NCBI GenBank assembly: GCA_017620845.1
Contig: JAGAUJ010000003.1
Location: 46,136 to 110,135, forward strand
Direction: 5' to 3'
Source: Rickettsiales bacterium
Lineage (GTDB): Bacteria > Pseudomonadota > Alphaproteobacteria > Rickettsiales > UBA1997
Length of the DNA stretch: 64,000 nucleotides
Positions 13,553 through 43,321 of this stretch are shown piece after piece (positions within the stretch are counted from its first letter, which is position 1; every line of letters begins with the position of its first letter). The notes under the pieces were generated by a model. That model saw only the letters and a list, made by a program, of their open reading frames with translations, was not told where the DNA came from and searched no databases. The position numbers and the translations under genes are program-made.

Positions 13553-15076
13553 TTATGTAGAAAAACTTGTCTCCTTAAACATTAAAGCCTCTTCAATATG
13601 TCTTTCTTCAATATTATTAGATTGTTCTAAATCAGCAATAGTTCTTGCTACTTTAATTATTTTATTATATCCTCTTAAAGATAAATTATAAACTTGATTT
13701 GCTAATTTAATAATATTTTCACATTTATTATTAAGTTTCATATACTTATCTATTTCATTATTACTTGCACAAGCATTGAGCATTCTATGATTAGATATTG
13801 AATCTTTATATCTTTCTATTTGAATCTGTCTTGCTATTTTTACTCTACTTTTTACTATTATAGATGTTTCATTATTAATAGATTTTGCTTTTTCTTTGAA
13901 GATGTCTATTTTTGGAATATCAACAGTTATATCAAACCTATCTAAAACTGGACCTGAAATTTTATTTTGATATTCTTGTGCACACAACGGTGATCTTTTA
14001 CATTGTTTTGCTATATCTCCATAATGTCCACACCTACAAGGGTTCATTGCACCAATTAACTGAAACTCTGCTGGATATGTTATATTTTGTGTTGCTCTTG
14101 CAATAGATACTTTACCAGTTTCAAGCGGTTGTCTCAAAGAATCTAAAACTTGCCTTGAAAATTCCGGTAATTCATCCAAAAACAATATTCCATTGTGTGC
14201 TAATGAAATTTGACCGGGTTTTGGCCTACTTCCACCACCAACCATAGCAGGCATAGAACAAGAATGATGTGGGTCTAAAAATGGTCTTTTATTTATTAAT
14301 TCTCCATTTAAAAGCCCACCAGAAATACTATTAATTATATTAACTTCTAGCATTTCTTTTGGCGTCAAATCTGGCAATATACTCAATATCCTTTGTGCCA
14401 ACATTGACTTTCCAGTTCCAGGTGGTCCTATCATTAACAAATTATGTCCCCCAGCAGCAGCAATTTCTAATGCTCTTTTTCCTTGTCTTTGTCCATATAC
14501 ATCTTTTAAATCTGGATAAATTACTTCTCTTGATTTTATATTCAAAATTGGTTTTTCAATTTCACATCTTCCATTTAAATAATTTATTAATGTCAGTAAA
14601 TTATCAACAGCAACTATTTGCATATCACTATTAGCCCACAAAGCCTCTCTGGCACAAGATTTTGGACAAATAATTCCTAAATTTCTTTCATTGGCACCAA
14701 TAGCAACTGGTAATATTCCACTAACTGCATTTATAGAACCATCAAGCGATAATTCCCCAACCACAACAAAATTATCTATACTTTCTTGCGATATTATACC
14801 CATTTCTATTAATAAACCAATAGCCATAGGCAAATCTAAATAACTACCTTCTTTATTAATATCAGCAGGACTTAAATTAATTACAAGCCTTTGTGCTGGA
14901 AAACTTAAACCAATAGAATTTATACTCGCTCTTATTCTTTCCTTTGCTTCATTAACTGTTTTATCTGGAAGTCCAACAATATTAAAAGCAACCATACCAG
15001 AAGACAATTTTACTTCTACATTTATATCAACAACTTCCGTTCCCAAAAAAGCAAATGTTTTTATTTTTGCTACCAC
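13553..15076 (-). CDS. comM: YifB/ComM family Mg-chelatase-like AAA+ ATPase
   Basis: 507 aa with a Lon-like N-terminal domain, Walker A GPPGTGKSM, Walker B LFLDELPEF and a C-terminal ChlI-like helical domain. The start codon is GTG. Confidence 0.9.
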   Translation of the reverse strand: MVAKIKTFAFLGTEVVDINVEVKLSSGMVAFNIVGLPDKTVNEAKERIRASINSIGLSFPAQRLVINLSPADINKEGSYLDLPMAIGLLIEMGIISQESIDNFVVVGELSLDGSINAVSGILPVAIGANERNLGIICPKSCAREALWANSDMQIVAVDNLLTLINYLNGRCEIEKPILNIKSREVIYPDLKDVYGQRQGKRALEIAAAGGHNLLMIGPPGTGKSMLAQRILSILPDLTPKEMLEVNIINSISGGLLNGELINKRPFLDPHHSCSMPAMVGGGSRPKPGQISLAHNGILFLDELPEFSRQVLDSLRQPLETGKVSIARATQNITYPAEFQLIGAMNPCRCGHYGDIAKQCKRSPLCAQEYQNKISGPVLDRFDITVDIPKIDIFKEKAKSINNETSIIVKSRVKIARQIQIERYKDSISNHRMLNACASNNEIDKYMKLNNKCENIIKLANQVYNLSLRGYNKIIKVARTIADLEQSNNIEERHIEEALMFKETSFST

Positions 15077-15481
15077 TTAATTATCCTTTTTTATGTTATA
15101 AAATATAAGTTCCGGTCTATCTTTCATTACAATCTCATCGGTATTACCATTAAAAATTATAGTTTTTGATAAACCATTAACAAAATCACTATTTATATTT
15201 ACATCATTTAAAATAATATCGTTATAAGAATTTTTTACAATAGCACTATTTGATGTAATATAAATTAAATCATCGTGTTCATTATTTATTTGTAATATTG
15301 GTTTTTCCACTAACTCAGTATTTACATATTCATTAACTACATTATGTGAAGCACCAAAATTAACAATTAAACTCCAAATCATTAATATATATATTGATAT
15401 GCCAATAAATAATAATATTAATCTTAAAAATACAAAAATACACTTATAAATAAATAATTTTTTACAAATTTCTTTATACAT
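15077..15481 (-). CDS. Hypothetical membrane-anchored protein
   Basis: 134 aa with a single N-terminal TM helix followed by a beta-rich soluble part. It occupies the position after tolB where pal is normally found, but it has no OmpA/Pal motif. A weak LptC-like pattern is present only. Confidence 0.5.
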   Translation of the reverse strand: MYKEICKKLFIYKCIFVFLRLILLFIGISIYILMIWSLIVNFGASHNVVNEYVNTELVEKPILQINNEHDDLIYITSNSAIVKNSYNDIILNDVNINSDFVNGLSKTIIFNGNTDEIVMKDRPELIFYNIKKDN

Positions 15482-15485
15482 AATC

Positions 15486-17045
15486 TTAAAAATTCATTAC
15501 CCAATCTGGATCACTTGCACCCTCGTTATCAGGTGTATTTAGTTGATATTCATTTCTTGTTAAAATATCCATTATAAATATTTTTGGAATACTACCTTTA
15601 CCAAATGGGGATGTTTGTTTTGTATATATCAAATATCTTGAATTTGGCGCCCACCTTACACCCTCTATTAAATAATTACTTGCTAATATTCTTTCTCCCT
15701 CTCCACCAGAAGTCATTATACCAAGATAAAAATTACCTTTAAATATTTTTATAAAAGCAATTAATCTACCATCTGGTGACCAAGATGGCTTATCATATAT
15801 TCCAGCACCATTACTTATTTGTTTCTCTTCTTCTGTTTTAAGATCTTTTACATATAATTTTCTTGAACCAGTTTTATCTGAAACATAAACAATTTTACTA
15901 CCATCTGGACTAAAACTTGCGCAGGTATTAATATTTTTATTATTTGTAAGTTTTTTATTTATTTTTTTATCTAAATCAAACAAATACAAATTAGTTCCCT
16001 TGCCCTCTTCCGAACCAGATACTATTAATTGATTTTCTCCATTTGGATTAAATGTTGCAGCACTTGTCATTTCTTGTTTTTTTGTAGAAATTTTTAAAGA
16101 TTTATTATTCTGTAAATTATGTTTTACAATAAATGGTCCACTTTGATCATATTCTAAATAAAATACCTCATTTTGATTATATTTAGAAAAAATTGGTGTT
16201 AATTTTAAATTATTACCGCTTGTTATTTTTGTATTTTTTGATCCATCAAAATTCATTATCGCCACTTGCTTTTTTCTGTTTTTAATATTACCAGTTTCCG
16301 ATATATACATTATTTTACTATTAAACAATCCACCATTTTCACCTGTTGTTTGTTGAAAAATAAAATCAGCCACAACATTACCAAGTTTATCAGCATCTGT
16401 TGTTAAAGTATCTATTATATAATATTTACCTTCCAAAAATTTTTCATCTATTGCATCCCAAATAAAAACATCTAACCTTATTTCATGCTCCTTGGTAATA
16501 CTTATATCGCTACTTATAATATAACTGTTATCATTTAATTCCTCAGAAAACACATATTCACTAATATCGTGACTATTACTATTGTTTATAAAATTTGTTA
16601 TATTAATACATGAATCATAATCATAACTAATACTATATAAGTTTGTAATATTTAAGTTATCAATTATTTTTTTATATGTATTAAAAAATAAATTTACATT
16701 GTGTTCACTACTATAATTCGTATATGTTTTTATTATTTTATGTTGAGTTTCAATATTACTATTATTAATATCAATAGTATTATTTAATTCATTAGACTCT
16801 ATTGAGTTTAATAAATCATTCATTTCTTTGGCCGTATTATCATTTTTTTCATTTGATTCATAATTTTGTGTTGTTACAACATTACTAAACTCTTCTTTAC
16901 CAACTAAACATGGTTTTAATATTTTTATTTTTATTTTATTATCAAAATTACCAATGGACATTAAGCTATTATCATAAGCAACATCAGCAAAAGATCTTAT
17001 AATACAAAAAAGATAAATAAAAAATACATAATAAACTCTTTTCAT
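15486..17045 (-). CDS. tolB: Tol-Pal system beta-propeller protein TolB
   Basis: C-terminal WD-like propeller repeats (FSPDGSKIVYVSD, WSPDGRLIAFI, WAPNSRYLIY). Starting at MKRVYY... gives a signal peptide; the ORF could extend to 17072. The N-terminal domain contains a long Asn-rich insertion. Confidence 0.85.
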   Translation of the reverse strand: MKRVYYVFFIYLFCIIRSFADVAYDNSLMSIGNFDNKIKIKILKPCLVGKEEFSNVVTTQNYESNEKNDNTAKEMNDLLNSIESNELNNTIDINNSNIETQHKIIKTYTNYSSEHNVNLFFNTYKKIIDNLNITNLYSISYDYDSCINITNFINNSNSHDISEYVFSEELNDNSYIISSDISITKEHEIRLDVFIWDAIDEKFLEGKYYIIDTLTTDADKLGNVVADFIFQQTTGENGGLFNSKIMYISETGNIKNRKKQVAIMNFDGSKNTKITSGNNLKLTPIFSKYNQNEVFYLEYDQSGPFIVKHNLQNNKSLKISTKKQEMTSAATFNPNGENQLIVSGSEEGKGTNLYLFDLDKKINKKLTNNKNINTCASFSPDGSKIVYVSDKTGSRKLYVKDLKTEEEKQISNGAGIYDKPSWSPDGRLIAFIKIFKGNFYLGIMTSGGEGERILASNYLIEGVRWAPNSRYLIYTKQTSPFGKGSIPKIFIMDILTRNEYQLNTPDNEGASDPDWVMNF

Positions 17046-17055
17046 AAATACCCCA

Positions 17056-18201
17056 TTATTTAGTTTCATCAAAAATAAAATTAATATTTTGCCAACTTTG
17101 ATATTTTGTTGATGGTAAATTTCTTATTGGATTACAATAAGCCAAAGCAACCCTTGCATTATTTATTGCAACATCATAATCCTCTGGAGAAAACTTATTT
17201 TCATCATCTATAACTTTTATTTTTATTTCTTTTGAATCTATTATTCCATCCATAAACAATTTTATTGTAACAGATGTTTTAACCATACTTTTTTTACCTG
17301 TTTGTATAAGCGCATTTTTATAACAAGAAACCAATTGATTTTGAACCACCATCCTTTCTCTGGCAGATAAACCAAAACCACTATTTTCTCTTTTTATTAT
17401 TTCTTTTATTTGTTTTAGGTCTTTTTGTGTAAAAATTTTATCAACATCTATATTTAACAACAAATTTTTATTGTGTTCGTTATTGTTCTTTGTAATAATT
17501 TGTTCATTACCACTCATAACAACTTTTTTATTTAGATTATTTTTATTATTAGTCTTATTATTGTTTGTAATTTTTGATAAAATTTTATCCAAATCCTGAA
17601 TGTTTTGTTCATTTTTATTAACATTGTTTATTGTGTTATTATTTGTTTTATTTATATTGTTTTTATTTATATCCGCTACAATATTTTCTAATCTATCTTT
17701 TTCTGCGTTTGTAGATATATTTTTATTAGTATTATTTTGTTTTACAACTTCAACCATTTTCATTTTTTCTTCTTGTTTTTTAACATATCTTTTATAGTCT
17801 GTTGGCCCCAAATATAACACATATTCATTATTTTTGTTATTATAATTATTATTTGCATTAATTATTTTTTTTACAGCATTAATATCTAAATTGGTATTTA
17901 TATTATTAATATCTTCTTGTAGTGGTGGTAAAACTTTATTTTCATTTTTTATTGATTTAGATATTTTATATAAATCTATTTTATCTTGTAAAGACAGCTC
18001 TGGAAATAAATCTGTTTCTGTTGTTTTAATTTCATTATTAGCAAATAAAGATTTATCTATATTAATTATATTTATATGTGTTATTTCTTTATTTATTACA
18101 CTATTTATTGTATCATTGAAAAATAATATCAATAAAAATAAAACATGTAAACACAAAGAATATAACAAATTTCTAATCATTTCTTTTTTTGCTTTTTTCA
18201 T
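17056..18201 (-). CDS. tolA: TolA-like protein
   Basis: 381 aa with an N-terminal TM anchor, a long Asn/Lys-rich linker and a C-terminal TolA/TonB-C-like domain. It sits between tolR and tolB. Confidence 0.6.
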   Translation of the reverse strand: MKKAKKEMIRNLLYSLCLHVLFLLILFFNDTINSVINKEITHINIINIDKSLFANNEIKTTETDLFPELSLQDKIDLYKISKSIKNENKVLPPLQEDINNINTNLDINAVKKIINANNNYNNKNNEYVLYLGPTDYKRYVKKQEEKMKMVEVVKQNNTNKNISTNAEKDRLENIVADINKNNINKTNNNTINNVNKNEQNIQDLDKILSKITNNNKTNNKNNLNKKVVMSGNEQIITKNNNEHNKNLLLNIDVDKIFTQKDLKQIKEIIKRENSGFGLSARERMVVQNQLVSCYKNALIQTGKKSMVKTSVTIKLFMDGIIDSKEIKIKVIDDENKFSPEDYDVAINNARVALAYCNPIRNLPSTKYQSWQNINFIFDETK

Positions 18202-19384: not shown

Positions 19385-20383
19385 ATGAAGAAATTTTTAT
19401 TTATATGCAATAAAGGAGAAGATGAAATTAGAATTGATAAGTTTGTTCATAATAATATTGTAAAAAATGATAATTATAAAACATTGTCAAGAAGAAAAAT
19501 ACAAGAGTTTATAAAAGGAAGTATGTTAAAAAAAAACAATGAAGTTTTTAATGATAATACATATAAAATAAAAACTGGAGATATTGTAGAAATAGAAATA
19601 TACGAAAATAAAGAAATAAAACCAGAAAAACAAAACATACCATTAAATATTGTTTATGAAGATGATGATTTATTAATTATAAATAAACAGGCTGGTTTAA
19701 TAACTCATCCAGGTGCTGGAAATTATGATAATACATTAGTAAACGCCCTACTCTTCTATTGTGGAGACAATCTATCAAATATAAATAACCCAATAAGACC
19801 TGGTATAGTCCACAGGTTAGATAAAGATACAACTGGGTTAATGGTTGTAGCAAAAAACAATCACACACATGAAATATTAAAACAACAATTAAAAGATAGA
19901 ATATTAAAAAGAAAATATAATGCTATAATATGGGGAAATATTGTCCCACCACAAGGTATAATTGAAGGTTATATTAATAGATGTAAAACAAATAGATTAA
20001 AAATGGAATTAACAAAAGATAATACTGGTAAATACTCCTTAACTAATTATAAAACTTTAGAAAATTATGGAAGTGTAGCAAGTTTAGTTGAATGTGAGTT
20101 AGATACTGGAAGAACACATCAAATAAGGGTTCATTTTAGCAGTAAAAAACACCCATTAATTGGTGATTATAATTATGGTGGAAATTTAAGAAAAATAAAA
20201 GGTGAAGAAAATAAATATAAAACTTTTATAGAACAATTCCCAAGACAAGCCTTACACTCAAAAGTTATAAAATTTATTCATCCAAGAACACAAAAAGAAA
20301 TGTTTTTTGAAAGTGATTTACCACAAGATATGAAAGATTTAATAAATAATCTTAAATTATTAAACAATGTTAACAAATATTAA
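19385..20383 (+). CDS. rluD: RluA-family 23S rRNA pseudouridine synthase (RluD-like)
   Basis: 332 aa with an N-terminal S4-like domain, the catalytic motif HRLDKDTTGL and TGRTHQIRVH. Confidence 0.85.
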   Translation: MKKFLFICNKGEDEIRIDKFVHNNIVKNDNYKTLSRRKIQEFIKGSMLKKNNEVFNDNTYKIKTGDIVEIEIYENKEIKPEKQNIPLNIVYEDDDLLIINKQAGLITHPGAGNYDNTLVNALLFYCGDNLSNINNPIRPGIVHRLDKDTTGLMVVAKNNHTHEILKQQLKDRILKRKYNAIIWGNIVPPQGIIEGYINRCKTNRLKMELTKDNTGKYSLTNYKTLENYGSVASLVECELDTGRTHQIRVHFSSKKHPLIGDYNYGGNLRKIKGEENKYKTFIEQFPRQALHSKVIKFIHPRTQKEMFFESDLPQDMKDLINNLKLLNNVNKY

Positions 20384-20873
20384 TCATTTAATAATTATAA
20401 TATAAATAAACTACCCCTGATACAAGTATAGGGGGTATTATTGGAATAAAATTTAATATACACCAATCCAACCACCACACAAACATAACTTAACATAAAA
20501 CTTTACTATTTTTTTAATATAACACTTTAAAAACCACCCATCCACCACACATAATCTAAAACAATACTTGTTAATAAATCTGTTAATAACTCTGTAAATA
20601 ACCTTGTTTATTAAATTGTTAATAAATATTTATTAACACATTTACAACAATTATTAACAATAAAAAAATATATTTATTAACATGTTAATAAATTATTAAA
20701 AGTTATTAACAAGTTGTTAATAACTTGTTTTTTTATATTAAATAACATCCTTTAATTGTTAATAATTTTGTTAAAAAATAATAATTAACATTTTAACAAA
20801 CTAAATATAAAATATAAAACCATATAAAATATTGATTTAATTTATTTTTTATTATTATTGACTTTTTAATAGA
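20384..20873. other. Candidate chromosomal replication origin (oriC) region
   Basis: 490-bp non-coding gap containing a dense motif array, two long palindromes and two CCACCACACA copies (20472-20481, 20542-20551). It coincides with the + strand C>G to G>C switch and with the gene-orientation switch. See findings. Confidence 0.45.
20570..20765. repeat. Array of 10 perfect GTTAATAA/TTATTAAC motifs, extended consensus (T/A)TGTTAATAA
   Basis: Forward copies start at 20570, 20582, 20618, 20684, 20716 and 20758. Reverse copies start at 20630, 20651, 20674 and 20703. There are also several 7/8 copies. The array includes a 22-bp palindrome (20672-20693) and a 27-bp palindrome (20700-20726). Confidence 0.95.
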
Positions 20874-20912
20874 TTGTGGTTTACTTATCATAGTTTACAC
20901 AACATCAATATT

Positions 20913-21437
20913 ATGAAAGAAAAAATAAAAATATTTTTAATAAATAGTTTTAAACAAATATCTAATTTTATACAAAATTTATATTTAAATATTTCACAAA
21001 AAATTAAAGTTTCATTTAAAAAATGTAAAGAAGGTGAGGAAAATTTAAATACTTTACTTATATATTGGTGTGTAATTCCATGTATATTATATTTATTTAT
21101 ATTAAAATTTACCAATTGTAAATTTATTTTAAATATAATTGATTTGTTTATGTTAATATTAACATTATTGGATTTATACTTTATTTCAAAAACCTTAAAA
21201 ATACATCCGGAATACAATACTGAACTAATGAGAGAATTAGAAAAACAAAATTACTATAAAACACTTGATGAAAAACAATTAAAAGAAGAAAAATTAAAAG
21301 AAAAGAAAGATAATACAAAAAAATTTTTCTATAAATTATTAGCATTAAAGAATAGTGAAAAAACAGATATCTATAAAATTGTTAAATGTTTTGTAATTTT
21401 AATATTATTAGTAGTATTAAAAAGAATTTTTTTATAA
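20913..21437 (+). CDS. Hypothetical membrane protein
   Basis: ATG at 20913 (the ORF track starts at 20874 with a non-ATG codon). It has two or three TM helices, a Lys/Glu-rich loop and no recognisable motif. It lies directly upstream of the pilB-like gene. Confidence 0.55.
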   Translation: MKEKIKIFLINSFKQISNFIQNLYLNISQKIKVSFKKCKEGEENLNTLLIYWCVIPCILYLFILKFTNCKFILNIIDLFMLILTLLDLYFISKTLKIHPEYNTELMRELEKQNYYKTLDEKQLKEEKLKEKKDNTKKFFYKLLALKNSEKTDIYKIVKCFVILILLVVLKRIFL

Positions 21438-21447
21438 GGAGTAATTA

Positions 21448-23334
21448 ATGAGCGAAGAAACAACTGCAACTGAAAATATTATAGATACACAAAAAGAAAA
21501 TATTGAAACAAAAAAAACACAAGAAAAGCAGGTTGAGAATAAAACTGAAGAAATTGTAGAAGATCAAAAAATTACAAAAAAAGAGAATATACAAGAAACA
21601 AAACAAGAAGATGGCACAAAAAAACAAAAAGTAAATATTATTGATGAATTAATAAAAAAACAAATAATATCAAAAGACCAAGTTGAAGTTGCTTTAAAAG
21701 AACAGAAAAACACAGGAAACAAAGAAGATATAGCAGCAATTTTGGTTAGAATGGGTTTTATTAGTGATAAAACACTTTCTGAAATATTAAATGCTAATAC
21801 TGACGTAAAAAATCTTGATTTAAAATCTTTAATTATAGATCAAAATCTTGTTAGAAAAATCCCAAAAGGATTTGCTTTACAAAATAAAGTTATAGCAGTT
21901 GGTTTGGTAAAACAAACTGTTACAGTTGCTGCAACAGATATATTTAATATTATTGTTTCAGATCAATTAAAAAGATTTTTCCCAGCAAATTATAAAATAC
22001 AATTAATTTATGCTTCTGAATCAGATATAACAAATGCTATTGATAGATATTATGATTATGATATGTCTATTGATGGTATTTTAAAAGAAATTGAGGGTGG
22101 TGCATTAGTTGGAGATGAACAACAAGCAATGCAGGGTGACTATAAAAGCCCTATGGTGCGACTTGTTGATGCTATTTTAACAGATGCTGTTAGAATAGGA
22201 GCATCAGATTTACATTTTGAGCCAGAAAATTTCTTTTTAAGATTAAGATATAGAATTGATGGTAAAATGGAGCAAATTAAGGCTTTTCATAAAGATTATT
22301 GGAGTTCTATTGCAGTAAGAATTAAGATTATGGCTGGTATGAATATTGCTGAAACAAGAAAGGCGCAAGATGGTAGAATTAATGCACAAATTTTAGGAAG
22401 AAATATTGATTTTAGGGTATCAAGTCAACCCACTGTTGATGGTGAAAATATAGTAATGAGAATTTTGGATGAAAAACAATCAATATTAGATTTAGATAAA
22501 TTAGGTTATTTTCCAAGAACGCAAAATATTATAAAAAAATGTATACAAAGACCAGAGGGAATAGTTATTATAACAGGTCCAACAGGAAGTGGTAAAACAA
22601 CAACACTTTATACTGTTTTAAGTATGATAAATAGTATTGAAAAAAATATAATGACTTTGGAAAATCCTGTGGAATATAGAATTCCTTTAATAAGACAAAC
22701 AAGTATAAATCCAGAAATTGGTGTAGATTTTGCAGATGGTATAAGAACTTTGATGCGACAAGACCCTGATGTAATATTGGTTGGTGAGATTAGGGACAGA
22801 GAAACAGCGATTGCGGCAGTTCAGGCTGCTATGACTGGTCACCAAGTATTTTCATCTTTGCATACAAATGATGCTTTTTCTGCTATTCCAAGACTTATGC
22901 AGATAGGTGTTGAACCTTATTTATTATCTGGTTCTTTAATATGTGTAATTGCACAAAGGTTAGCAAGAAAATTGTGTCCGCATTGTAGAAGAAAAAGACC
23001 AGTAACAGAACAAGAAAAGACAATAATAAGTAGAATTTTAGGAGAAAAAATTGCATCCAAAGTTACAGAGTTATATGAAGCGGTTGGGTGTGAGAAATGT
23101 AGAGGTAATGGATTTACTGGACGAATGGCAATAGTAGAAATTATAGATGTAGATAAAGAGTTGGATGAAATGATAGTTAGAAGAGCAACAAAAAAAGAAA
23201 TGACACAATATTTAAATAATAACGGTTTTATATCTATGCAAATAGATGGTGTTCAAAAGGTTGTAATGGGTTATACAACTATGGATGAGTTAATGAGAGT
23301 TGTTGATTTAACTTCTGTTTTGGATGTAAAATAA
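21448..23334 (+). CDS. pilB: Type II/IV secretion (type IV pilus assembly) ATPase, GspE/PilB family
   Basis: 628 aa with an AAGGAG RBS at 21436-21441 and a T2SSE_N/MshEN-like N-domain. It has Walker A GPTGSGKTTT (from about 22576), Walker B DPDVILVGEIRD, a His box and the tetracysteine motif CPHC...CEKC typical of PilB/GspE rather than PilT. Confidence 0.85.
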   Translation: MSEETTATENIIDTQKENIETKKTQEKQVENKTEEIVEDQKITKKENIQETKQEDGTKKQKVNIIDELIKKQIISKDQVEVALKEQKNTGNKEDIAAILVRMGFISDKTLSEILNANTDVKNLDLKSLIIDQNLVRKIPKGFALQNKVIAVGLVKQTVTVAATDIFNIIVSDQLKRFFPANYKIQLIYASESDITNAIDRYYDYDMSIDGILKEIEGGALVGDEQQAMQGDYKSPMVRLVDAILTDAVRIGASDLHFEPENFFLRLRYRIDGKMEQIKAFHKDYWSSIAVRIKIMAGMNIAETRKAQDGRINAQILGRNIDFRVSSQPTVDGENIVMRILDEKQSILDLDKLGYFPRTQNIIKKCIQRPEGIVIITGPTGSGKTTTLYTVLSMINSIEKNIMTLENPVEYRIPLIRQTSINPEIGVDFADGIRTLMRQDPDVILVGEIRDRETAIAAVQAAMTGHQVFSSLHTNDAFSAIPRLMQIGVEPYLLSGSLICVIAQRLARKLCPHCRRKRPVTEQEKTIISRILGEKIASKVTELYEAVGCEKCRGNGFTGRMAIVEIIDVDKELDEMIVRRATKKEMTQYLNNNGFISMQIDGVQKVVMGYTTMDELMRVVDLTSVLDVK

Positions 23335-26436: not shown

Positions 26437-27351
26437 TTATAGCGCGCGTTCTTTTTTATCGTATTGTTTTTTGAATTTATTATATTTTTTTTCAAAAGAT
26501 TGTGAGTTTATTGATCTTATTGCTTTATCATAGGTTGATTCATTTTCTTTTTGATTATTATTTATTTCATCTTGTAAATTTTGCGATATATTTGTTTGTA
26601 TATTATGTGGTTGTTGGTCTGGTGGTAGTATTGATTTTGCATATGCAATTTTAATATCTTGTCTTACATCATTAATACTTTTGTCAAGTTTTATTAATTC
26701 TTTAATTACTAAATCGTTTATTTTTTTTATTTTTTTATTTATTTTATGTTGTTTAATTCTATGTTTTATACTATGTTTGTGTATGTGTTGTGATGATAAT
26801 TTTTGAAATAATGACATATTATCATCATTGTTGTGGTTTGTGTTTGTTGTGGTTTGTGTTTGTTGTTTGTTTTTTCTCTTAGAAAATAATTTTTTAAAAA
26901 ATGATTGTTTTTCTGGTTTTGTGTCTATTGTTGCAGTTGGTTGTTCGTTGTTATCTTGTTGGTTTTCAACGATTGTTGTTTGGATGTTTTGATTTTGTAT
27001 AGTATGTTTGTTTTGTTCTTTGATTTTTGTTTGTATTGTTTGTATATATTCTTGTATTTCTTGATTTTGTGTAATATTAATTGCACTATTACCATGTTCA
27101 TCTTCTAAAAAAACATCTGCTCCATATTCTACTAATAGTTTAACTTTTTCTATGTCGTTACTTTTGCATGCCCGAAATAATGGATAGCCTTGTGATGGGT
27201 CTGGGTGTTTTATATTTATTATTTGTTTTGTTGTTTCTATGTTTTGTTGTTTAAGAAAGTCTTTAAGTGTTTGGCTACTTTCTATGTTTATATTAAGGAT
27301 TATATCTGAATAAACATCTTGTTCTTCTTTTGTTAAATTATAAAAATCCAT
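26437..27351 (-). CDS. Ankyrin-repeat protein (candidate secreted effector)
   Basis: 304 aa. GYPLFRACKSNDIEKVKLLVEYGADVFLEDEHGNSAINI fits the ANK consensus (about 27050-27200). The rest is Gln/Asn/Thr/Lys-rich low complexity. Confidence 0.7.
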   Translation of the reverse strand: MDFYNLTKEEQDVYSDIILNINIESSQTLKDFLKQQNIETTKQIINIKHPDPSQGYPLFRACKSNDIEKVKLLVEYGADVFLEDEHGNSAINITQNQEIQEYIQTIQTKIKEQNKHTIQNQNIQTTIVENQQDNNEQPTATIDTKPEKQSFFKKLFSKRKNKQQTQTTTNTNHNNDDNMSLFQKLSSQHIHKHSIKHRIKQHKINKKIKKINDLVIKELIKLDKSINDVRQDIKIAYAKSILPPDQQPHNIQTNISQNLQDEINNNQKENESTYDKAIRSINSQSFEKKYNKFKKQYDKKERAL

Positions 27352-28366: not shown

Positions 28367-28382
28367 TGTTTCACGTGGAACA
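28367..28382. promoter_or_regulatory. parS centromere site
   Basis: TGTTTCACGTGGAACA; its reverse complement TGTTCCACGTGAAACA is the canonical 16-bp parS. It ends 1 nt before the parA ATG. Confidence 0.85.
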
Positions 28383-29147
28383 ATGAAAATATTATCAGTA
28401 GTAAATCAAAAGGGTGGAGTTGGTAAAACAACAACAGCATTAAACGTATCTGCTGCATTGGCTGTATTGGATTATAAGGTTTTAGTAGTAGATTTTGACC
28501 CACAAGGAAATTTAAGTTCTGGTTTTGGTATTGGTTTGTCTGATAGACAAGATAAAACTGTTTACAATGTTTTATTAGATGAGAGTGGTAGTATAAATGA
28601 TATAATTTTTAAAACAAAAATTAATAATTTAGATGTGTTAACGGCCGATACAAATTTGTCTGCTTTTGAAATTGAAGTATTTAATAAAGATAATAGAGAA
28701 TTTATTTTAAGTAATTTATTAGATAGAATATCAAATAAATATGATTACGTAATAATTGACTGTCCGCCATCACTTGGTTTTTTAACAATAAATTCACTTG
28801 CTTGTTCTAATTATGTTTTGATACCTCTACAATGTGAATTTTTTGCTTTGGAGGGTTTAAGTCATTTATTAGAAACGCTTGAAAGGGTTAAAGTAAACTT
28901 AAATCCAAAACTTACTATTAATGGTGTGCTATTAACTATGTATGATAGAAGAAATAAGCTTACTGAACAGGTTGAAAATGATGTTAGAGGATGTTTGGGG
29001 GATTTGGTTTACAAGACAGTAATTCCAAGAAATGTTAAATTAACAGAGTCTACGTCTTTTGGTATTCCAACAATTATATATGATCAAAATTGTTCTGGTT
29101 CTATTGCTTATATTAATTTTGTAAAAGAAATGGTAAAAAGATTATGA
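28383..29147 (+). CDS. parA: Chromosome partitioning ATPase ParA (Soj)
   Basis: 254 aa with the deviant Walker A NQKGGVGKTTT and IIDCPPSLG. Confidence 0.93.
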   Translation: MKILSVVNQKGGVGKTTTALNVSAALAVLDYKVLVVDFDPQGNLSSGFGIGLSDRQDKTVYNVLLDESGSINDIIFKTKINNLDVLTADTNLSAFEIEVFNKDNREFILSNLLDRISNKYDYVIIDCPPSLGFLTINSLACSNYVLIPLQCEFFALEGLSHLLETLERVKVNLNPKLTINGVLLTMYDRRNKLTEQVENDVRGCLGDLVYKTVIPRNVKLTESTSFGIPTIIYDQNCSGSIAYINFVKEMVKRL

Positions 29148-30001
29148 TTGAAAAAATTGATAATAAAAAATTAGGAAGAGGACTTTCTTCTTTGCTTGGT
29201 GATAAAAAATTTTCCATTATTGAAGGTGGTAAAAATGAATTAAATATAGACTCAATAGTGATTAATAATAATCAACCAAGAAAAAATTTTAATGATGAAA
29301 GTTTAAATGAACTAGTTGAATCTGTAAAACAATATGGTATATTACAGCCAATTCTTGTTAGAAAAATTGAGAATAATAAATATGAAATTATTGCTGGTGA
29401 GCGAAGATATAGATCGGCAAAACTTGCTGGACTTAAAACCATTCCTGTTTTAATTAAAGAACTTGATGATGAAAAATCTTTTAATTTAAGTATAATAGAA
29501 AACATACAAAGAGAAAATTTAAATCCTTTAGAAGAGGCAAATGCTTATAATGAATTGATTAAAAAATATAACTACACACAACAGGATATTGCTAATAAAG
29601 TTGGAAAAAGCAGAAGTTATATTGCTAATTTATTAAGATTATTAAATTTGCCAGATGTTGTGCAGAAATATTTAATTGATGGTAAGTTAGAAATGGGGCA
29701 TGCAAGGGCACTTGTGAATTGTAATTTTATTAATGACATTATTGATTACATTGTTGACAATAATTTAAGTGTTAGAGAAGTTGAAAAACTTGTTAATGAT
29801 GAACAAAATATTGAAAATATAAAAAATAAAAAAATAAAAAAAATAATAACAAATAACTGTGGTGACAGAATAGATTTGTTAAAAAAAGCAGGTTATAATT
29901 GTAAAATAACTTGTAATAAAACTACTGGAAAAAGTAGTTTGAATTTACAATTCAATTCAATTGATGAATTGGATGATTTTATTAATAATCTAATTAAATA
30001 A
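29144..30001 (+). CDS. parB: Chromosome partitioning protein ParB (Spo0J)
   Basis: 285 aa with the ParB box QPRK.F, the GERRYRSAKLAG motif and an HTH region. It overlaps parA by 4 nt. Confidence 0.93.
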   Translation: MIEKIDNKKLGRGLSSLLGDKKFSIIEGGKNELNIDSIVINNNQPRKNFNDESLNELVESVKQYGILQPILVRKIENNKYEIIAGERRYRSAKLAGLKTIPVLIKELDDEKSFNLSIIENIQRENLNPLEEANAYNELIKKYNYTQQDIANKVGKSRSYIANLLRLLNLPDVVQKYLIDGKLEMGHARALVNCNFINDIIDYIVDNNLSVREVEKLVNDEQNIENIKNKKIKKIITNNCGDRIDLLKKAGYNCKITCNKTTGKSSLNLQFNSIDELDDFINNLIK

Positions 30002-34055: not shown

Positions 34056-35066
34056 ATGTTAAATAATATAATTATAAAACAAAATTTAATTAATAATATC
34101 AATAATTTTATTGATTTATCAAAATTTTCAAAAGTTGCAGTTTTAACAGACGAAAATTTAATAAATTGCGGTTGGTTAGACAAATTGCAAATAAACAGCA
34201 TTATAAAAATCAAATCTGGCGAAATTAACAAAAATTTAGAAACAGTTTCACACATTTGGCAACAAATGAGTGAATTACAAATGGATAGAAAATCACTTTT
34301 AATTAATTTAGGTGGTGGTGTAGTATGTGATTTGGGCGGATTTTGCGCTTCTACTTATATGAGAGGTATAAAATTTATACAAATACCAACAACACTTTTA
34401 AGTCAAGTTGATGCTTCTGTTGGTGGAAAAACTGGTTTTGATTTTAATGGAGTAAAAAATTTAATTGGAACATTTACTGAGCCTGAAATGGTTTTAATAG
34501 ATTCTAACACTTTAACAACTTTGCCAAAAAGAGAGTATGTTTCTGGTTTAGCAGAAGTTATTAAATATGGTATTATTTATGATGTAGAATTTTTTGAATA
34601 TCTTAAAAATGACAATATAGATAATGATTATATTATAAAAAAATCTTGTGAAATTAAAGAAAAAGTTGTTTTAGAAGATTTTAAAGAAGGTGGTTTAAGA
34701 AAAATATTAAATTTCGGTCATACAATAGGGCACTCTATTGAAAGTTTATCGTTGGAAACAAAAAATCTATTATTACACGGAGAGGCTGTTGCTATTGGTA
34801 TGATTGCAGAAAGTTACATAGCAAAAGAAATTGGAAATTTGACTAATGATGAGTATGAATTAATAAAAAATATTATAGAACAATATGGTTTGCCAAGTTT
34901 TTATAATGGAGATTTAGAAGAAATATTTTTGATGTTATTTAAAGATAAGAAAAATACAAGTGGTAAAATAAAATGGGTTTTACCAAATGGAATTGGAAAA
35001 TGTGTATATGATGTAGAAGTTGATAATGATATTGTAAAAATGGCAATAAGGAGTATATTAAAATGA
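34056..35066 (+). CDS. aroB: 3-dehydroquinate synthase
   Basis: 336 aa with GGGVVCDLGGFCASTYMRGIKFIQIPTTLLSQVDASVGGKTG and metal-binding His motifs (NFGHTIGH, HGEAVAIG). Confidence 0.93.
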   Translation: MLNNIIIKQNLINNINNFIDLSKFSKVAVLTDENLINCGWLDKLQINSIIKIKSGEINKNLETVSHIWQQMSELQMDRKSLLINLGGGVVCDLGGFCASTYMRGIKFIQIPTTLLSQVDASVGGKTGFDFNGVKNLIGTFTEPEMVLIDSNTLTTLPKREYVSGLAEVIKYGIIYDVEFFEYLKNDNIDNDYIIKKSCEIKEKVVLEDFKEGGLRKILNFGHTIGHSIESLSLETKNLLLHGEAVAIGMIAESYIAKEIGNLTNDEYELIKNIIEQYGLPSFYNGDLEEIFLMLFKDKKNTSGKIKWVLPNGIGKCVYDVEVDNDIVKMAIRSILK

Positions 35067-35341
35067 ATTTAGAAGAATTGAGAATTGAAATTGATAAATG
35101 TAATAATGAAATAATAGGGGCAATTAAAAAAAGGTTTTATGTTACAAGAGAAATTGGTAAAATAAAAAAAGATAGTAATTTATCATCTTATGATAAAAGT
35201 AGAGAGGATAAAGTTATAAATAATGTTAGATTATTAGCACAAAATAGTAATTTAAATGAAGATATGATTGAAGATATTTTTAGAATTATTATGAAACAAG
35301 TTATTATAGAGCATGAGGAATTAAAAAATGCTAATAAATAA
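35063..35341 (+). CDS. Chorismate mutase (AroQ class)
   Basis: 92-aa all-helical ORF. LEELRIEIDKCNNEIIGAIKKRFYVTREIGKIKK fits the AroQ N-terminal helix. It overlaps aroB by 4 nt and aroA by 14 nt. Confidence 0.75.
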   Translation: MNLEELRIEIDKCNNEIIGAIKKRFYVTREIGKIKKDSNLSSYDKSREDKVINNVRLLAQNSNLNEDMIEDIFRIIMKQVIIEHEELKNANK

Positions 35342-36596
35342 AATAGATAACTTAAATAATGCAAAAATTGAAATTTTAGGCTCTAAAAGTTATACAAATA
35401 GGGCCTTAATTATTGCAAGTCTTACAGAAGGTAAAACAATTTTAAATAATCCACTTTATAGTGATGATACAAAGTATATGATTGAATCATTGGAAAAATT
35501 AGGTGTAAAATTTGAAAAAAGTGATAAAAAATTAGTTGTTTATGGTAATGGTGGTAAGTTTCAAGTAAATGAAAATATTGAATTATTTTGTGGATTAGCA
35601 GGAACAACAAGCAGATTTTTAACTGGATTATTAGCGTTAATAAAAGATGATATAATAATAACTGGTGAGGGTAAGATTTTAGAAAGACCAATTGGTGATT
35701 TAGTTGATGGACTGCAACAGATTGGTGCAAATATTAAGTATTTGGGTAAAAAAGGTTCACTTCCTTTAAAGGGAAATGGAAAAAATATAAGTGGCAATGA
35801 AATATCAATAAATGGTAGTGTTTCTAGTCAATATTTTACTGCACTTATGATGGTTGCGCCTTTATTGAAGGATGGATTAAAAATTAATGTTATAAGAGAA
35901 CAAGTTTCTAAATCTTATATAGATATAACTTGTGATATAATGAAATCTTTTGGTGTAGAAGTTATTAATAATAATTATAAAGAATATGTTATTAAACCAG
36001 TAAAATATAAGGCAATAGAATATAATATTGAGGGAGATTGGTCGTCAGCATCTTATTTTTGTTGTTTGGGTGCTTTAATTAATGGTGGAATAGAAATAAG
36101 TAATTTAAATAATAATTCAGTGCAAGGAGATAAACAATTTGCTAAATTAATGGAAAAGGTTGGGGCGGTAGTTGAATATAAAAATAATTCAGTTTTTATA
36201 AAAAAAGATAAAATAAGGCCCATTACTGTAAATATGGAAACAATGCCAGATACTGCTATGTCTTTGGCTGTTTTGTTATCTTTTGCAAATGGTAAAAGTA
36301 GAATAAATGGGTTGTCCACTTTAAAAAATAAAGAAAGCAATAGATTGTTAGCAATGAAAAATGAACTTGCTAAATTGTCAATAAAAACAGAAATTGGAGA
36401 TGATTATATTGTAATTTATGGTGGAAATTATCATAGAGTTATTGGGGAAATAGAAACTTATAACGATCATAGAATTGCAATGTCTTTTGCTATTGCTGGG
36501 GCGGTTATTGGTGGAGTTGAAATAAAAAATCCAGAGGTTGTAAGTAAATCTTTTCCAAATTTTTGGGAATATTTTAATAATTTAAGTAAAAAATAA
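35328..36596 (+). CDS. aroA: 3-phosphoshikimate 1-carboxyvinyltransferase (EPSP synthase)
   Basis: 422 aa with GSKSYTNRALIIASL, LFCGLAGTTSRFL, KESNRLLAM and NDHRIAMSFAIAG. Confidence 0.93.
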   Translation: MLINKIDNLNNAKIEILGSKSYTNRALIIASLTEGKTILNNPLYSDDTKYMIESLEKLGVKFEKSDKKLVVYGNGGKFQVNENIELFCGLAGTTSRFLTGLLALIKDDIIITGEGKILERPIGDLVDGLQQIGANIKYLGKKGSLPLKGNGKNISGNEISINGSVSSQYFTALMMVAPLLKDGLKINVIREQVSKSYIDITCDIMKSFGVEVINNNYKEYVIKPVKYKAIEYNIEGDWSSASYFCCLGALINGGIEISNLNNNSVQGDKQFAKLMEKVGAVVEYKNNSVFIKKDKIRPITVNMETMPDTAMSLAVLLSFANGKSRINGLSTLKNKESNRLLAMKNELAKLSIKTEIGDDYIVIYGGNYHRVIGEIETYNDHRIAMSFAIAGAVIGGVEIKNPEVVSKSFPNFWEYFNNLSKK

Positions 36597-36597
36597 T

Positions 36598-37191
36598 ATG
36601 GAAAAATATAAGAGAATTTTGTTGTTGGGTTTTAGATGTGTTGGTAAAACAACAATATCTAAAAAATTATCAAATATAATGAATATACCACTAATAGATA
36701 TAGATGAAGAGATAGAAAAAAAACAAGGTAAAACAATTACTGAAATTACAAACAATGGTGAGAATTGGGTTAGATTTAGAGAATTAGAGTTAAAAAAATT
36801 AGAGGAAGTTTTAAAAATTGATAATATTATTATTTCTGCTGGTGGTGGAGTTGGTGTAAATGATGTAAAATATGATGACAATTTTACTTATGGATATTTA
36901 CAAAGAGATTTAATAAAAAAATCAACAGATACTTTAAAAGTTTTGTTATTTGCAAATGAAAGAGTTTTAAGAGATAGATTGTATTTAAGTAAAATAAATG
37001 AAAATAATAGACCAGATTTATATAATAAAACAAATAGTATAACAGAATATATTGAAAGTAATATACAAACTATGAAAAAAAGAGAAAAATTTTATAAAGA
37101 AATGGCAGATTTGGTGTTTGATGCAAGTGATAAAGATGATTATAAAAATACTATAAATTTAATAAAAATGATTAAAGATTATGAAATTTAA
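36598..37191 (+). CDS. aroK: Shikimate kinase
   Basis: 197 aa with P-loop LLGFRCVGKTTISKKL and the ISAGGG motif. The C-terminus is extended. Confidence 0.8.
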   Translation: MEKYKRILLLGFRCVGKTTISKKLSNIMNIPLIDIDEEIEKKQGKTITEITNNGENWVRFRELELKKLEEVLKIDNIIISAGGGVGVNDVKYDDNFTYGYLQRDLIKKSTDTLKVLLFANERVLRDRLYLSKINENNRPDLYNKTNSITEYIESNIQTMKKREKFYKEMADLVFDASDKDDYKNTINLIKMIKDYEI

Positions 37192-38044
37192 AAACGAATT
37201 AGAAAAAATTGAAAATACATATTTTGGAAAAAATAAATGTATAATAATTGGCAATCCAGTAGAGCATTCTTTATCACCAGCAATGCATAATATTGCTTAC
37301 AAAAATTGCAATATTGACGATAAGTTTATTTTTGATAAAATTACAGTAAAAGAAGAAGAATTGGAGGAGTTTATTTTTGATTTAAAAGATATTAATAAAA
37401 AAACTAATTCTTTTGTTGGGTTGACTTGCACTATGCCACATAAACAAAATATAATTAAATATTTAGATGAGATAAAAAATGAAGCAAAAATAATAGGTGC
37501 TGTAAATAGTGTTTTAATTAAAGATAATAAGTTTATAGGTTATAATACAGATTGGTATGGTGTAGAGCGACCATTTATGGAAAGATGTATTAATTTAACA
37601 AATAAAAAAGTCGCCATTATTGGTGCTGGTGGCGCATCAAGATCGGCAATTTATACTTTTAAGAAAAATAATAGTGTAGTAAATATTTTTAATAGAACAA
37701 AAGAAAAGGCGGATTTGTTAGCAAAAGAATTTAACTGTAATTCTTATAATTTACAAGATATGGATGTTTTAGAAAGTAGTGATATTATTATAAATACAAC
37801 AAATGTTGGTATGGGCGAATTGGAAAATATATCGCCAATAAATACTGATGTTTTAAATAAAAATCATATAGTTTTTGAATGTATTTATAAACCAAAAGAA
37901 ACTGAATTAATTAAAAAAGCAAAAAATGTTGGTGCTACAATTATTTATGGTTGGGAAATGTTATTGTATCAAGGAGTTAAGCAGTTTGAAATATATACTA
38001 GTATAAAACCAAATATTGATATTATGAGAGGTGTGTTGTTATAA
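37181..38044 (+). CDS. aroE: Shikimate 5-dehydrogenase
   Basis: 287 aa with GNPVEHSLSPAMHN, TMPHK, NTDWYG and the NADP site IIGAGGASRSAIY. Confidence 0.88.
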   Translation: MKFKNELEKIENTYFGKNKCIIIGNPVEHSLSPAMHNIAYKNCNIDDKFIFDKITVKEEELEEFIFDLKDINKKTNSFVGLTCTMPHKQNIIKYLDEIKNEAKIIGAVNSVLIKDNKFIGYNTDWYGVERPFMERCINLTNKKVAIIGAGGASRSAIYTFKKNNSVVNIFNRTKEKADLLAKEFNCNSYNLQDMDVLESSDIIINTTNVGMGELENISPINTDVLNKNHIVFECIYKPKETELIKKAKNVGATIIYGWEMLLYQGVKQFEIYTSIKPNIDIMRGVLL

Positions 38045-38106
38045 AGATGTGTATTAAAATGTCTGTTATAGTATTGTTAATTTTGTTAAAATTATAGGTG
38101 TATATT

Positions 38107-38775
38107 ATGATAAAAATTTGTAGTGTAGTTATTGGGGAAAGTTTAGAAGAATTTTTAGATAATTTATATAAAGTTCAAGAAGTTTCTAATTTTGTTGAGT
38201 TAAGAGTTGATTATATTAAAGATTTATCAATAGAGTATTTAGATATTATTAAAAAACAAACAATAAAGGAAAATATTTTTACTTGTAGATCTATTAATGA
38301 GGGCGGAAGATTTGCGGGCAGTAAGGAAGAATTAAAAAGTATAATTTATAGAGCAAATGAATTACAATTTAATCATATTGATATTGAAATATCAATGTTA
38401 GAAAATATTAATTTTGATAATAAAAATTGTAAAATTATAGGCTCTTATCATAATTTTAATAATACACCAAATTATGATGAATTATTAAATATTTATAAAA
38501 ATATAAAACAGTATGATTTTGTAGATATTGTTAAAATCGCAACAAATGTTATAAATGATAATGATAATATTGAATTAGTTAAATTACTAATAAATAAAGA
38601 TAAAGATATTATTGTTTTAGGTATGGGAGAAAAAGGGAAAATAACAAGGATTATATCGCCTTTATTGGGTGGTTATTTAACTTTTGCATCTGTTGATAAT
38701 AATATTTCTGCTTCGGGGCAGATTTCTTTAAATGATTTAATAAAAATATATGGGGATAAATATGACTGGAAATAG
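38107..38775 (+). CDS. aroD: 3-dehydroquinate dehydratase, type I
   Basis: About 222 aa with a TIM-barrel type I DHQase layout (ELRVDY..., SYHNF, and a conserved Lys region VKIAT). The start is taken at ATG 38107 (GTG 38098 is possible). Confidence 0.8.
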   Translation: MIKICSVVIGESLEEFLDNLYKVQEVSNFVELRVDYIKDLSIEYLDIIKKQTIKENIFTCRSINEGGRFAGSKEELKSIIYRANELQFNHIDIEISMLENINFDNKNCKIIGSYHNFNNTPNYDELLNIYKNIKQYDFVDIVKIATNVINDNDNIELVKLLINKDKDIIVLGMGEKGKITRIISPLLGGYLTFASVDNNISASGQISLNDLIKIYGDKYDWK

Positions 38776-39847
38776 TTTTGGTAATTTATTTAAAATAACT
38801 ACATTTGGCGAATCGCACGGGGTCGCTATTGGTTGCGTTATAGATGGATGTCCTGCTAATATTGAAATTACAGAAGAGGATATACAAAAAGAATTAGATA
38901 AAAGAAAACCTGGGCAAAGTTCTATAACAACACAAAGAAAAGAAGAGGATAGGGTGCAAATTTTGTCTGGTGTTTTTGAGGAAAAAACTACTGGAACACC
39001 TATTATGTTGCTTATAATGAATAAGGACCATAAGTCGGCGGATTATTCTAATATTAAAGATATATTTAGACCATCTCACGCAGATTATACATATTTTAAA
39101 AAATATGGCATTAGAGATTATAGAGGTGGAGGTAGAGCGTCTGCAAGAGAAACTGCTTGTAGGGTTGCTGGTGGAGTAATAGCAAAAAAGTTTTTACAAA
39201 GTAAAGGTATTGAAGTTTTGTCTTTTGTGGAGCAAATAGGCAACATAAGAATGGATTATAATTCATTAGATGATATTTCTGTTGATAAAATTGAAAGTAA
39301 TATTGTTAGGTGTCCTGATATGGAAAAAGCAAAATTAATGATAGAATTGATAGAAAATACTAAAAATAATGGCGATTCTATTGGTGGAATTATTAAGTGT
39401 ATTATAAAAAATTGTCCTGCTGGACTTGGCGAACCTGTTTTTGATAAATTATCAGCACAATTAGCAAAAGCAATGTTAAGTATAAATGCTTGTAAGGGTT
39501 TTGAATATGGGGATGGTTTTGATTTTGTGAATAAAAGCGGTTCTAATTGTAATGATGAGTTTGTAAGTAAAAATGGTAAAATTTCTACAAAAACAAATCA
39601 TTCTGGCGGTATTCAGGGCGGAATATCTAATGGTGAAGAAATTAATTTTAGGGTTGTATTTAAACCTACTGCTACAATATTTAAGGAGCAAGATACGGTA
39701 AATATAAATGGAGAAAATGTTAAGTTTCAACCTTCTGGTAGACATGATCCTTGTGTTGTTCCGCGCGCTGTTCCTGTTGTTGAGGCTATGACTTGGTTGA
39801 CTTTGATGGATTTTTGGTTAATAAATAATGGTTTGTTGATAGATTAA
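38762..39847 (+). CDS. aroC: Chorismate synthase
   Basis: MTGNSFGNLFKITTFGESHG..., RPGQS, RPSHAD, GGGRASARET and GRHDPCV. ATG 38762 matches the family N-terminus (the ORF track starts at 38750). Confidence 0.95.
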   Translation: MTGNSFGNLFKITTFGESHGVAIGCVIDGCPANIEITEEDIQKELDKRKPGQSSITTQRKEEDRVQILSGVFEEKTTGTPIMLLIMNKDHKSADYSNIKDIFRPSHADYTYFKKYGIRDYRGGGRASARETACRVAGGVIAKKFLQSKGIEVLSFVEQIGNIRMDYNSLDDISVDKIESNIVRCPDMEKAKLMIELIENTKNNGDSIGGIIKCIIKNCPAGLGEPVFDKLSAQLAKAMLSINACKGFEYGDGFDFVNKSGSNCNDEFVSKNGKISTKTNHSGGIQGGISNGEEINFRVVFKPTATIFKEQDTVNINGENVKFQPSGRHDPCVVPRAVPVVEAMTWLTLMDFWLINNGLLID

Positions 39848-41629: not shown

Positions 41630-41632
41630 AAA

Positions 41633-43036: not shown

Positions 43037-43043
43037 TATATTG

Positions 43044-43068
43044 TGACTCCGTTTTTACGGAGTCATTT
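43044..43068 (+). terminator. Rho-independent terminator of pyk
   Basis: 9-bp stem TGACTCCGT/ACGGAGTCA with a TTTT loop, followed by TTTAATTT. Confidence 0.75.
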
Positions 43069-43321
43069 AATTTAGTGAATATTTTAGTATATACGGTGTG
43101 CTTTGTGTAAATTGTTGTTGAGTCAGTAAGAGTCGACGGTCGTTGTTTGTGTTGTTTTTTGTGGTAAGTATTGTTGAATTTATAAAGATTTATTGAAAAT
43201 ATTTTAAATAACTTATAGACAAATAACATTAAGCACATCTTTATTAAGGTATTATTGGGCAAGTAACTTGAATTATATTATTGATTTATTGTAAATTATT
43301 AAATGATTATTATTAAATAAA

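Follow-up and report, generated by a model that had tools for sequence, protein, structure and literature searches.

The window, by which we mean the whole 64-kb stretch of DNA that was analysed, has ~25% G+C and comes from an uncultured Rickettsiales bacterium; the homologues of its PilB protein bear the NCBI names of Rickettsiales metagenome-assembled genomes (MAGs). Between rluD and the orf174-pilB-pth operon lies an intergenic gap with a dense array of one 9-mer, which reads TGTTAATAA on one strand and TTATTAACA on the other and whose copies we call boxes (Table 1). A reading made from the sequence alone had given this gap a length of 490 bp. Its real extent is 529 bp (20384-20912), since orf174 begins at the ATG at 20913 and not at 20874, where the open reading frame has a TTG start; the start of orf174 was taken from gene calls on near-identical strain contigs. 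The gap is near-identical in four contigs from other samples, and five SNPs were seen among the near-identical strains, all outside the boxes, a number too small to mean anything. Neither dnaA nor hemE was found among the genes of the window, nor did a ctrA gene appear in the 64 kb, and tblastn with the E. coli DnaA query did not find dnaA in the fetched Rickettsiales loci. Within the gap there was no Rfam family match, the terminator scan called no sites, and the promoter scan was uninformative, with 14 promoter-like sites against 9.5 expected. The possible hairpin at the 3' end of rluD has too long a loop and went uncalled in the terminator scan. To the right of the gap, a canonical parS with parAB had been placed 7.5 kb away; a parS is indeed present, 7.6 kb away and abutting parAB, but it carries one mismatch to the canonical site.

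Table 1. Features of the candidate origin region and its surroundings (window coordinates).
Feature	Position	Strand	Remarks
rluD	19385-20383		Left flank of the gap
Candidate oriC, whole rluD-orf174 intergenic region	20384-20912	.	529 bp, 82% A+T; from ORF list, gene calls and skew change point
Possible rluD 3' hairpin, CCCCT-N-AGGGG	20411-20436	+	Read from the sequence; outside the conserved core
Two CCACCACACA copies	20472-20551	+	Within the left third of the gap, which is C-rich; specific to the species
Left tandem block, five same-strand box positions with 12-bp period	20569-20625	+	Positionally conserved in 8 species
Three perfect reverse boxes (TTATTAACA on the + strand) at 20630, 20651 and 20674	20630-20682	-
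Forward box (20683) directly next to the reverse box of 20674, and a one-mismatch reverse box (20693); includes the TTAA-N7-TTAA at 20685-20699	20683-20701	.
21-bp palindrome TTATTAACA-AGT-TGTTAATAA, convergent box pair	20703-20723	.	In 8/8 close relatives
Terminal module: TGTTAATAA (20757), TGTTAAAAA (20769), TAATTAACA (20782, reverse), TTAACA (20793-20798)	20757-20798	.
Candidate DNA unwinding element	20799-20857	.	59 bp, 90-93% A+T; beside the TTATCCACA-orientation side of the last box
-35-like hexamer TTGACT, putative promoter of orf174-pilB-pth	20858-20863	+	From comparison with pilB relatives
parS TGTTTCACGTGGAACA	28367-28382	.	Directly upstream of parA; origin-proximal marker
parA	28383-29147
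parB	29144-30001

Several other features of this DNA were observed alongside. A competence or type IV pilus-like set comprises comEC (127-1803), comM (13553-15076) and the orf174-PilB unit (20913-23334). The N-terminus of the PilB/GspE-family ATPase matches the c-di-GMP-binding MshEN domain, and orf174 (174 aa), which has no family match, always precedes pilB in relatives. The shikimate-pathway genes aroB-aroA-aroK-aroE-aroD-aroC lie contiguously at 34056-39847; such a cluster is unusual in a reduced, AT-rich Rickettsiales genome, and host provisioning may be its meaning. A 304-aa open reading frame on the minus strand (26437-27351), lagging in orientation, shows a weak ankyrin-repeat match and is extreme in composition, with a coding-strand GC skew at third codon positions (GC3 skew) of -0.71. 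The near-identical strain contig L002 carries, at 466-909 and 14841-17063, a gene with a Myb domain, a eukaryote-like domain, and an insertion of a 657-aa and an 81-aa gene between pth and a DUF2793 gene, a case of strain-level variation near the putative origin.

The array itself had been described as ten perfect 8-mers, six forward and four reverse, and our recount agrees: 26 copies of the 8-mer GTTAATAA occur in the window, ten of them in 20570-20765 (6 on the + and 4 on the - strand). All ten extend to the 9-mer TGTTAATAA, with + strand copies at 20569, 20581, 20617, 20683, 20715 and 20757 and - strand copies at 20630, 20651, 20674 and 20703. The near copies mentioned in the same reading are present as four one-mismatch boxes at 20593 (+), 20693 (-), 20769 (+) and 20782 (-), so that perfect and one-mismatch boxes together span 20569-20790 (222 bp). 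Outside the array, 63.8 kb of the window hold only 11 exact 9-mers, a rate from which 0.034 would be expected in the 197-bp array (Poisson P ~5e-22); the earlier estimate had been far fewer than one. Box density in the array is thus ~300 times that found elsewhere in the window. Counting copies with up to one mismatch per 300 bp, we found 14 at the array and at most five in any other stretch, and there was no second box cluster within the 64 kb.

The array has a definite internal anatomy. Its left tandem block occupies positions 20569, 20581, 20593 (TGTAAATAA), 20605 (TGTTTATTA, with two mismatches) and 20617, and is followed by reverse boxes, the palindromic pair and the terminal module, in which the TTAACA at 20793-20798 represents a partial tandem box. 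To the left of the boxes, two copies of CCACCACACA had been pointed out, and both were found (20472-20481 and 20542-20551). They lie in the left third of the gap (20440-20568), where the + strand is unusually C-rich (G9/C39) and which was conserved in none of the related origins. We rejected CCACCACACA as a functional element, as it is restricted to this species, absent from all related origins and outside the conserved core.

A scan of 185,579 species-representative genomes for three same-strand boxes 0-30 nt apart returned at least 120 loci. Among these, mixed-orientation arrays like that of the window are present in at least 12 Rickettsiales-type MAGs (L073, L083, L057, L042, L034, L047, L024, L016, L061, L017, L032 and L077), nine of which are labelled Rickettsiales or Rickettsia, with L017, L032 (and L085, from the same MAG) and L077 labelled otherwise. 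Among the matches listed, eleven MAGs have 8-11 perfect boxes per array and L061 has 6 within 300 bp; there is one array per MAG, as there is one in the 64-kb window, in genomes that are unclosed. The arrays share a common spacing pattern, F+12F+12F+12F+13R ... R+12F+53F+12F+13R (F, forward; R, reverse), and the spacings in L017 equal those of the window one for one on the opposite strand. In an alignment of eight species, identity to the window is 81% in box columns and 49% in spacers. Simple tandem repeats that contain TGTTAATAA were also returned by the scan, at L091 5901-6035, L089 917-1039 and L036 562-716 (periods 14, 16 and 23); these come from unrelated MAGs, are not origin-like and were set aside. 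In a MAG labelled Hyphomicrobiales with 33% G+C (L113), two TGTTAATAA clusters flank nadA (1665-1983 and 3034-3355) and may form a bipartite origin.

The genes around the array vary by species and include hemE, hflK, mraY, galU, infC, an amino-acid antiporter and rluD/pilB. In at least four MAGs (L073, L034, L077 and L061) the array sits immediately 5' of hemE, the gene that bounds the origins of Caulobacter and Rickettsia and serves as a criterion for predicting Rickettsiales origins (PMC1914354). In the window, rluD and orf174-pilB flank the array, in place of the hemE on one side and COG1806 or COG1253 on the other that mark a Cori-type origin. The conserved architecture, the varied flanks and the hemE cases point to an array that is conserved as a unit independent of its neighbours and had its ancestral seat at the hemE origin site. 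At one end of the array, five relatives (L057, L024, L016, L083 and L042) share a terminal module of the form TGTTAATAA-N3-TGTTAATAA-N4-TTATTAACA-N-ATTAACA-GGnC-TAATAATAACAATAA, and L034 has the same module turned toward hemE. The terminal module of the window is the positional homologue of this box-box-box-ATTAACA-GGnC-TAATAATAACAATAA arrangement and is more degenerate, with one mismatch in each of its last two boxes. A DnaA-trio pattern is clear in all six of these relatives and degenerate in the window, where only a first CTA is left.

As to the nature of the box, the sequence-only reading had noted a two-position difference from the DnaA box, and TTATTAACA does match TTATCCACA at 7/9 positions. 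It matches the stringent E. coli consensus TTATNCACA at 8/9, being broken at position 6, which counts against the origin reading. No canonical TTATNCACA occurs in the gap, and its six copies in the window are at chance level. Elsewhere, the 9-mer keeps company with dnaA: in at least 15 other matches of the scan, 9-mer clusters lie ~20-570 bp up- or downstream of dnaA, as located by tblastn with E. coli DnaA (binomial P ~2e-17), in Bacilli, Clostridia, Ignavibacteria, Bdellovibrionales, Patescibacteria, Kiritimatiellae, Poribacteria and Mycoplasmopsis. The dnaA-dnaN spacer of L120 contains a box, a GC spacer and (CTA)n trios (TTATTAACAgcccCTACTACTACTACTACTA), and dnaA-linked unwinding modules are likewise found in L122 (TTATTAACAtATTATCAccaCTACTACTACTACTA) and L097 (TTATTAACAATATTAACAgTAATAATATAAATAATAAATA). 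This layout is that of the basal unwinding system (BUS) defined for Bacillus and others (PMC8287927). Moreover, earlier work took the TTATTAACA found upstream of dnaA in Mycoplasma hominis, M. mobile and M. arthritidis to be a putative DnaA box (PMC2751442), and the 9-mer is also listed in the literature as a non-consensus DnaA-type box of T5-like phages. The occurrence of 9-mer clusters and unwinding modules beside dnaA supports TTATTAACA as a working DnaA-box variant, one in wider use than the literature we found would indicate. Among 15 DnaA proteins from genomes with TGTTAATAA boxes, the base-contact residues of domain IV showed no consistent substitution that explains the variant. As observations in their own right, the dnaA-linked origins of L120, L122, L097, L070, L087, L126, L040, L018 and L101 use TTATTAACA/TGTTAATAA as the main box, and some dnaA-linked loci carry perfect (CTA)5-6 DnaA-trio runs.

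We considered whether the array could instead be an operator for another protein, such as CtrA, a lineage-specific transcription factor or a nucleoid protein, that controls the flanking genes. Its position upstream of the orf174-pilB promoter and the retention of the 21-bp palindrome in eight relatives fit this explanation, as does the presence of TTAA in each box. Every TTATTAACA box includes TTAAC, a CtrA half-site, and box pairs make TTAA-N7-TTAA. Relatives with PilB proteins of 87%, 81% and 67% identity (L005, L007 and L009) nevertheless retain orf170-pilB, the first two also pth, with other upstream genes and gaps of 80-205 bp, and in all three the box array is absent upstream of pilB. 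The only part of the gap common to the window and an array-less pilB relative (L005) is the promoter piece TTGACTTTTTAATA. Since three tiers of PilB relatives keep the operon without the array, we rejected the array as the operator of orf174-pilB-pth. More generally, the flanking genes change in almost every species while the internal architecture is kept, and the invariant unit is the full 9-mer, a 7/9 DnaA box in both orientations, not a direct repeat with 11-bp spacing. The lack of a second cluster in 64 kb also speaks against a regulon. CtrA is conserved in the Alphaproteobacteria (PMC8116508), and in phyla beyond that group the 9-mer still clusters by dnaA. We therefore hold a control array of this kind to be very improbable.

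The two TTAA-N7-TTAA spacings that had been likened to CtrA sites are present at 20685-20699 and 20706-20720, against 0.12 expected at the rate of the whole window. Both arise from paired boxes, the second lying inside the 21-bp palindrome, and in the hemE-linked relatives tandem box pairs at 11 bp yield the same motif. Because box pairs form TTAA-N7-TTAA, an overlap of CtrA and DnaA sites is possible. A further idea, that initiator and cell-cycle repressor sites have merged in this clade so that CtrA and DnaA would compete for the same bases, with DnaA re-tuned to one high-affinity box used ~10 times with 12-bp phasing, seems to us doubtful. Model origins mix strong and weak DnaA boxes. The gap contains one loose IHF-like match (20813-20825) and no GANTC site.

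The strand composition changes at the gap. Hand counts had suggested C-rich intergenic DNA on the left and G-rich DNA on the right, and recounting gave G18/C56 in 8594-9004 and G54/C10 in 53973-54259. Raw skew tracks gene orientation, and third codon positions were therefore used to part the two effects, over 71 kb made up of the window and one 7-kb contig extension on its left. Left of the gap, almost every gene, on either coding strand, shows negative + strand GC3 skew (27 kb including the extension); right of it, the skew is positive for nearly all genes, again on either coding strand (43 kb), including the minus-strand genes at 26437-27351 (+0.71), 59476-60006 (+0.70) and 60043-60810 (+0.33). 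The flip between rluD and orf174/pilB is thus independent of coding strand, in agreement with the skew switch previously proposed here, and gene orientation diverges locally as well. Seven consecutive + strand genes in the left extension would be lagging, which counts against an origin at the gap; their GC3 skew is about zero or negative, whereas + strand genes on the right side typically have +0.5. In a weighted two-factor model of coding strand and replication over the 71 kb, the best change point fell at 20.0-21.0 kb; replication contributed +/-0.28 and coding strand +0.18, and the residual was half that of the strand-only model. Leading and lagging genes differ in GC3 skew at P=4e-8. A change from negative to positive skew has the polarity of an origin, as established for replication-associated skew. 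Around related arrays, the noise in GC3 skew over the 8-kb flanks was too great for switches to be confirmed.

A cluster of DnaA boxes need not be an origin, and the array might be a locus for titration or regulation in the manner of datA, or a promoter region under DnaA control, that happens to lie by the skew switch. What identifies the 9-mer as a DnaA box fits such a locus equally well, and the window has neither dnaA nor hemE. Against it, the skew change point lies within 1 kb of the array, orthologous arrays occupy the hemE origin position, and the terminal boxes with their AT-rich module resemble the unwinding modules of dnaA-linked origins. The nearby parS and parAB also argue for an origin, as do the 10-15 boxes, which are denser than the 3-5 reported for Rickettsiales and Caulobacter origins. 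We consider a non-origin cluster very improbable.

Another explanation takes the switch to be the breakpoint of an inversion or other rearrangement and the array to be an unrelated repeat, for instance an iteron remnant of a plasmid or mobile element. The neighbourhood has certainly been rearranged relative to relatives. In L007 (81% PilB identity; 4217-9803), orf167-pilB-pth follows directly after secF-pyk-cvpA, which in the window lies at 40757-44098, 20 kb from pilB, whereas the operon here stands by rluD; a rearrangement has therefore brought the pilB operon beside the array. The array flanks differ between species as well, and rearrangements around origins are common. However, the switch has the polarity of an origin and its arms hold their sign for 27 and 43 kb, and the architecture of the array is conserved in at least 12 species, with at least four arrays adjacent to hemE. 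No rep, integrase or transposase was identified beside the array, and the neighbours with a family match are housekeeping genes; among the neighbouring open reading frames none matched a Rep family, while orf174 and several others match no family. Iterons are direct repeats of 17-22 bp, unlike these 9-bp units in both orientations. A breakpoint with an unrelated repeat is accordingly extremely improbable in our judgement.

The rluD-orf174 gap is thus, with a probability that we put at roughly 0.85 on the basis of comparative sequence analysis, the chromosomal oriC of this uncultured Rickettsiales bacterium of ~25% G+C. The sequence-only reading had proposed an origin here, not beside dnaA, and each part of it that could be checked was borne out; the local skew, the conservation of the array and its associations with hemE and dnaA elsewhere support that reading. 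The locus is best read as an oriC displaced from hemE and dnaA by rearrangement, and we infer that DnaA would be the protein that binds the boxes.

At such an origin, domain IV of DnaA would bind the ten identical TTATTAACA/TGTTAATAA boxes together with ~5 degenerate ones, and the tandem block with 12-bp phasing and the opposed boxes would assemble a DnaA oligomer, as in other origins. The terminal module of box, box, inverted box and partial tandem box would then steer DnaA onto the AT-rich stretch between the last box and the orf174 promoter, where the duplex would open and forks would move out both ways. The orientation rule behind this assignment was checked on E. coli oriC, in which the 13-mers precede R1, written TGTGGATAA; the last box of the window faces the AT-rich stretch in the TTATCCACA orientation, the mirror image of the E. 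coli arrangement. A duplex-stability profile picked out no single unwinding site in this DNA of 82-93% A+T. With the trinucleotide pattern no longer discernible in this species, the exact site of unwinding is a predicted one.

A precise, comparatively validated candidate origin in an uncultured and very AT-rich Rickettsiales bacterium can be used to orient MAG assemblies, and offers an anchor for growth-rate estimates from coverage (peak-to-trough ratios) and for future shuttle-vector design. Prediction anchored on hemE or on TTATNCACA would miss this locus, since the putative origin lies off hemE and contains no stringent-consensus box; in most of the species found, the array likewise lies off hemE. 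The occurrence of TTATTAACA by dnaA in many unrelated low-GC phyla makes it a useful addition to the motif sets used for finding origins. The element is of an ordinary kind, and current understanding is not overturned by these results.

Among known systems, the locus resembles E. coli datA and the DnaA-box clusters of Bacillus in that its boxes are clustered away from dnaA. To our knowledge, datA and the non-origin clusters of Bacillus do not lie at a skew switch and have no unwinding module after them. The Mollicutes oriC (Mycoplasma hominis, M. mobile and M. arthritidis; PMC2751442) shares the identical 9-mer and a very AT-rich genome with our locus, but has 1-2 copies upstream of dnaA, whereas here ten copies in both orientations lie away from dnaA in an alphaproteobacterium.

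The likeness to the BUS layout, in which tandem DnaA boxes, a short GC spacer, DnaA-trios and AT-rich DNA follow one another in Bacillus subtilis and others (PMC8287927), lies in the terminal module. The Rickettsiales form TTATTAACA-N-ATTAACA-GGnC-TAATAATAACAATAA parallels the dnaA-dnaN modules of L097 (TTATTAACAATATTAACAgTAATAATA...) and L120 (TTATTAACAgcccCTACTACTA...). In the window, unlike the BUS, the last two boxes have one mismatch each, the trios are lost after the first CTA and the module stands far from dnaA. The orientation of the box relative to the AT-rich side also matches that of R1 and the unwinding element in E. coli.

The closest comparison is with the Cori-type origins of Caulobacter crescentus and those predicted for Rickettsia, Wolbachia, Ehrlichia and Anaplasma, which measure 383-620 bp and hold 3-5 DnaA boxes (PMC1914354). 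Like them, the candidate oriC is an intergenic region of a few hundred bp away from dnaA, with clustered boxes and TTAA-N7-TTAA motifs at a GC-skew shift, and in at least four related MAGs hemE lies next to the array, which stands just upstream of it as the origins of Caulobacter and Rickettsia do. Unlike them, it is flanked in the window by rluD and orf174-pilB with hemE no neighbour, has 10 perfect and ~5 degenerate boxes versus 3-5, and uses the box TTATTAACA in place of TTATNCACA. It also differs in having no GANTC and one weak IHF-like match, and its CtrA-type motifs are built from the putative DnaA boxes themselves.
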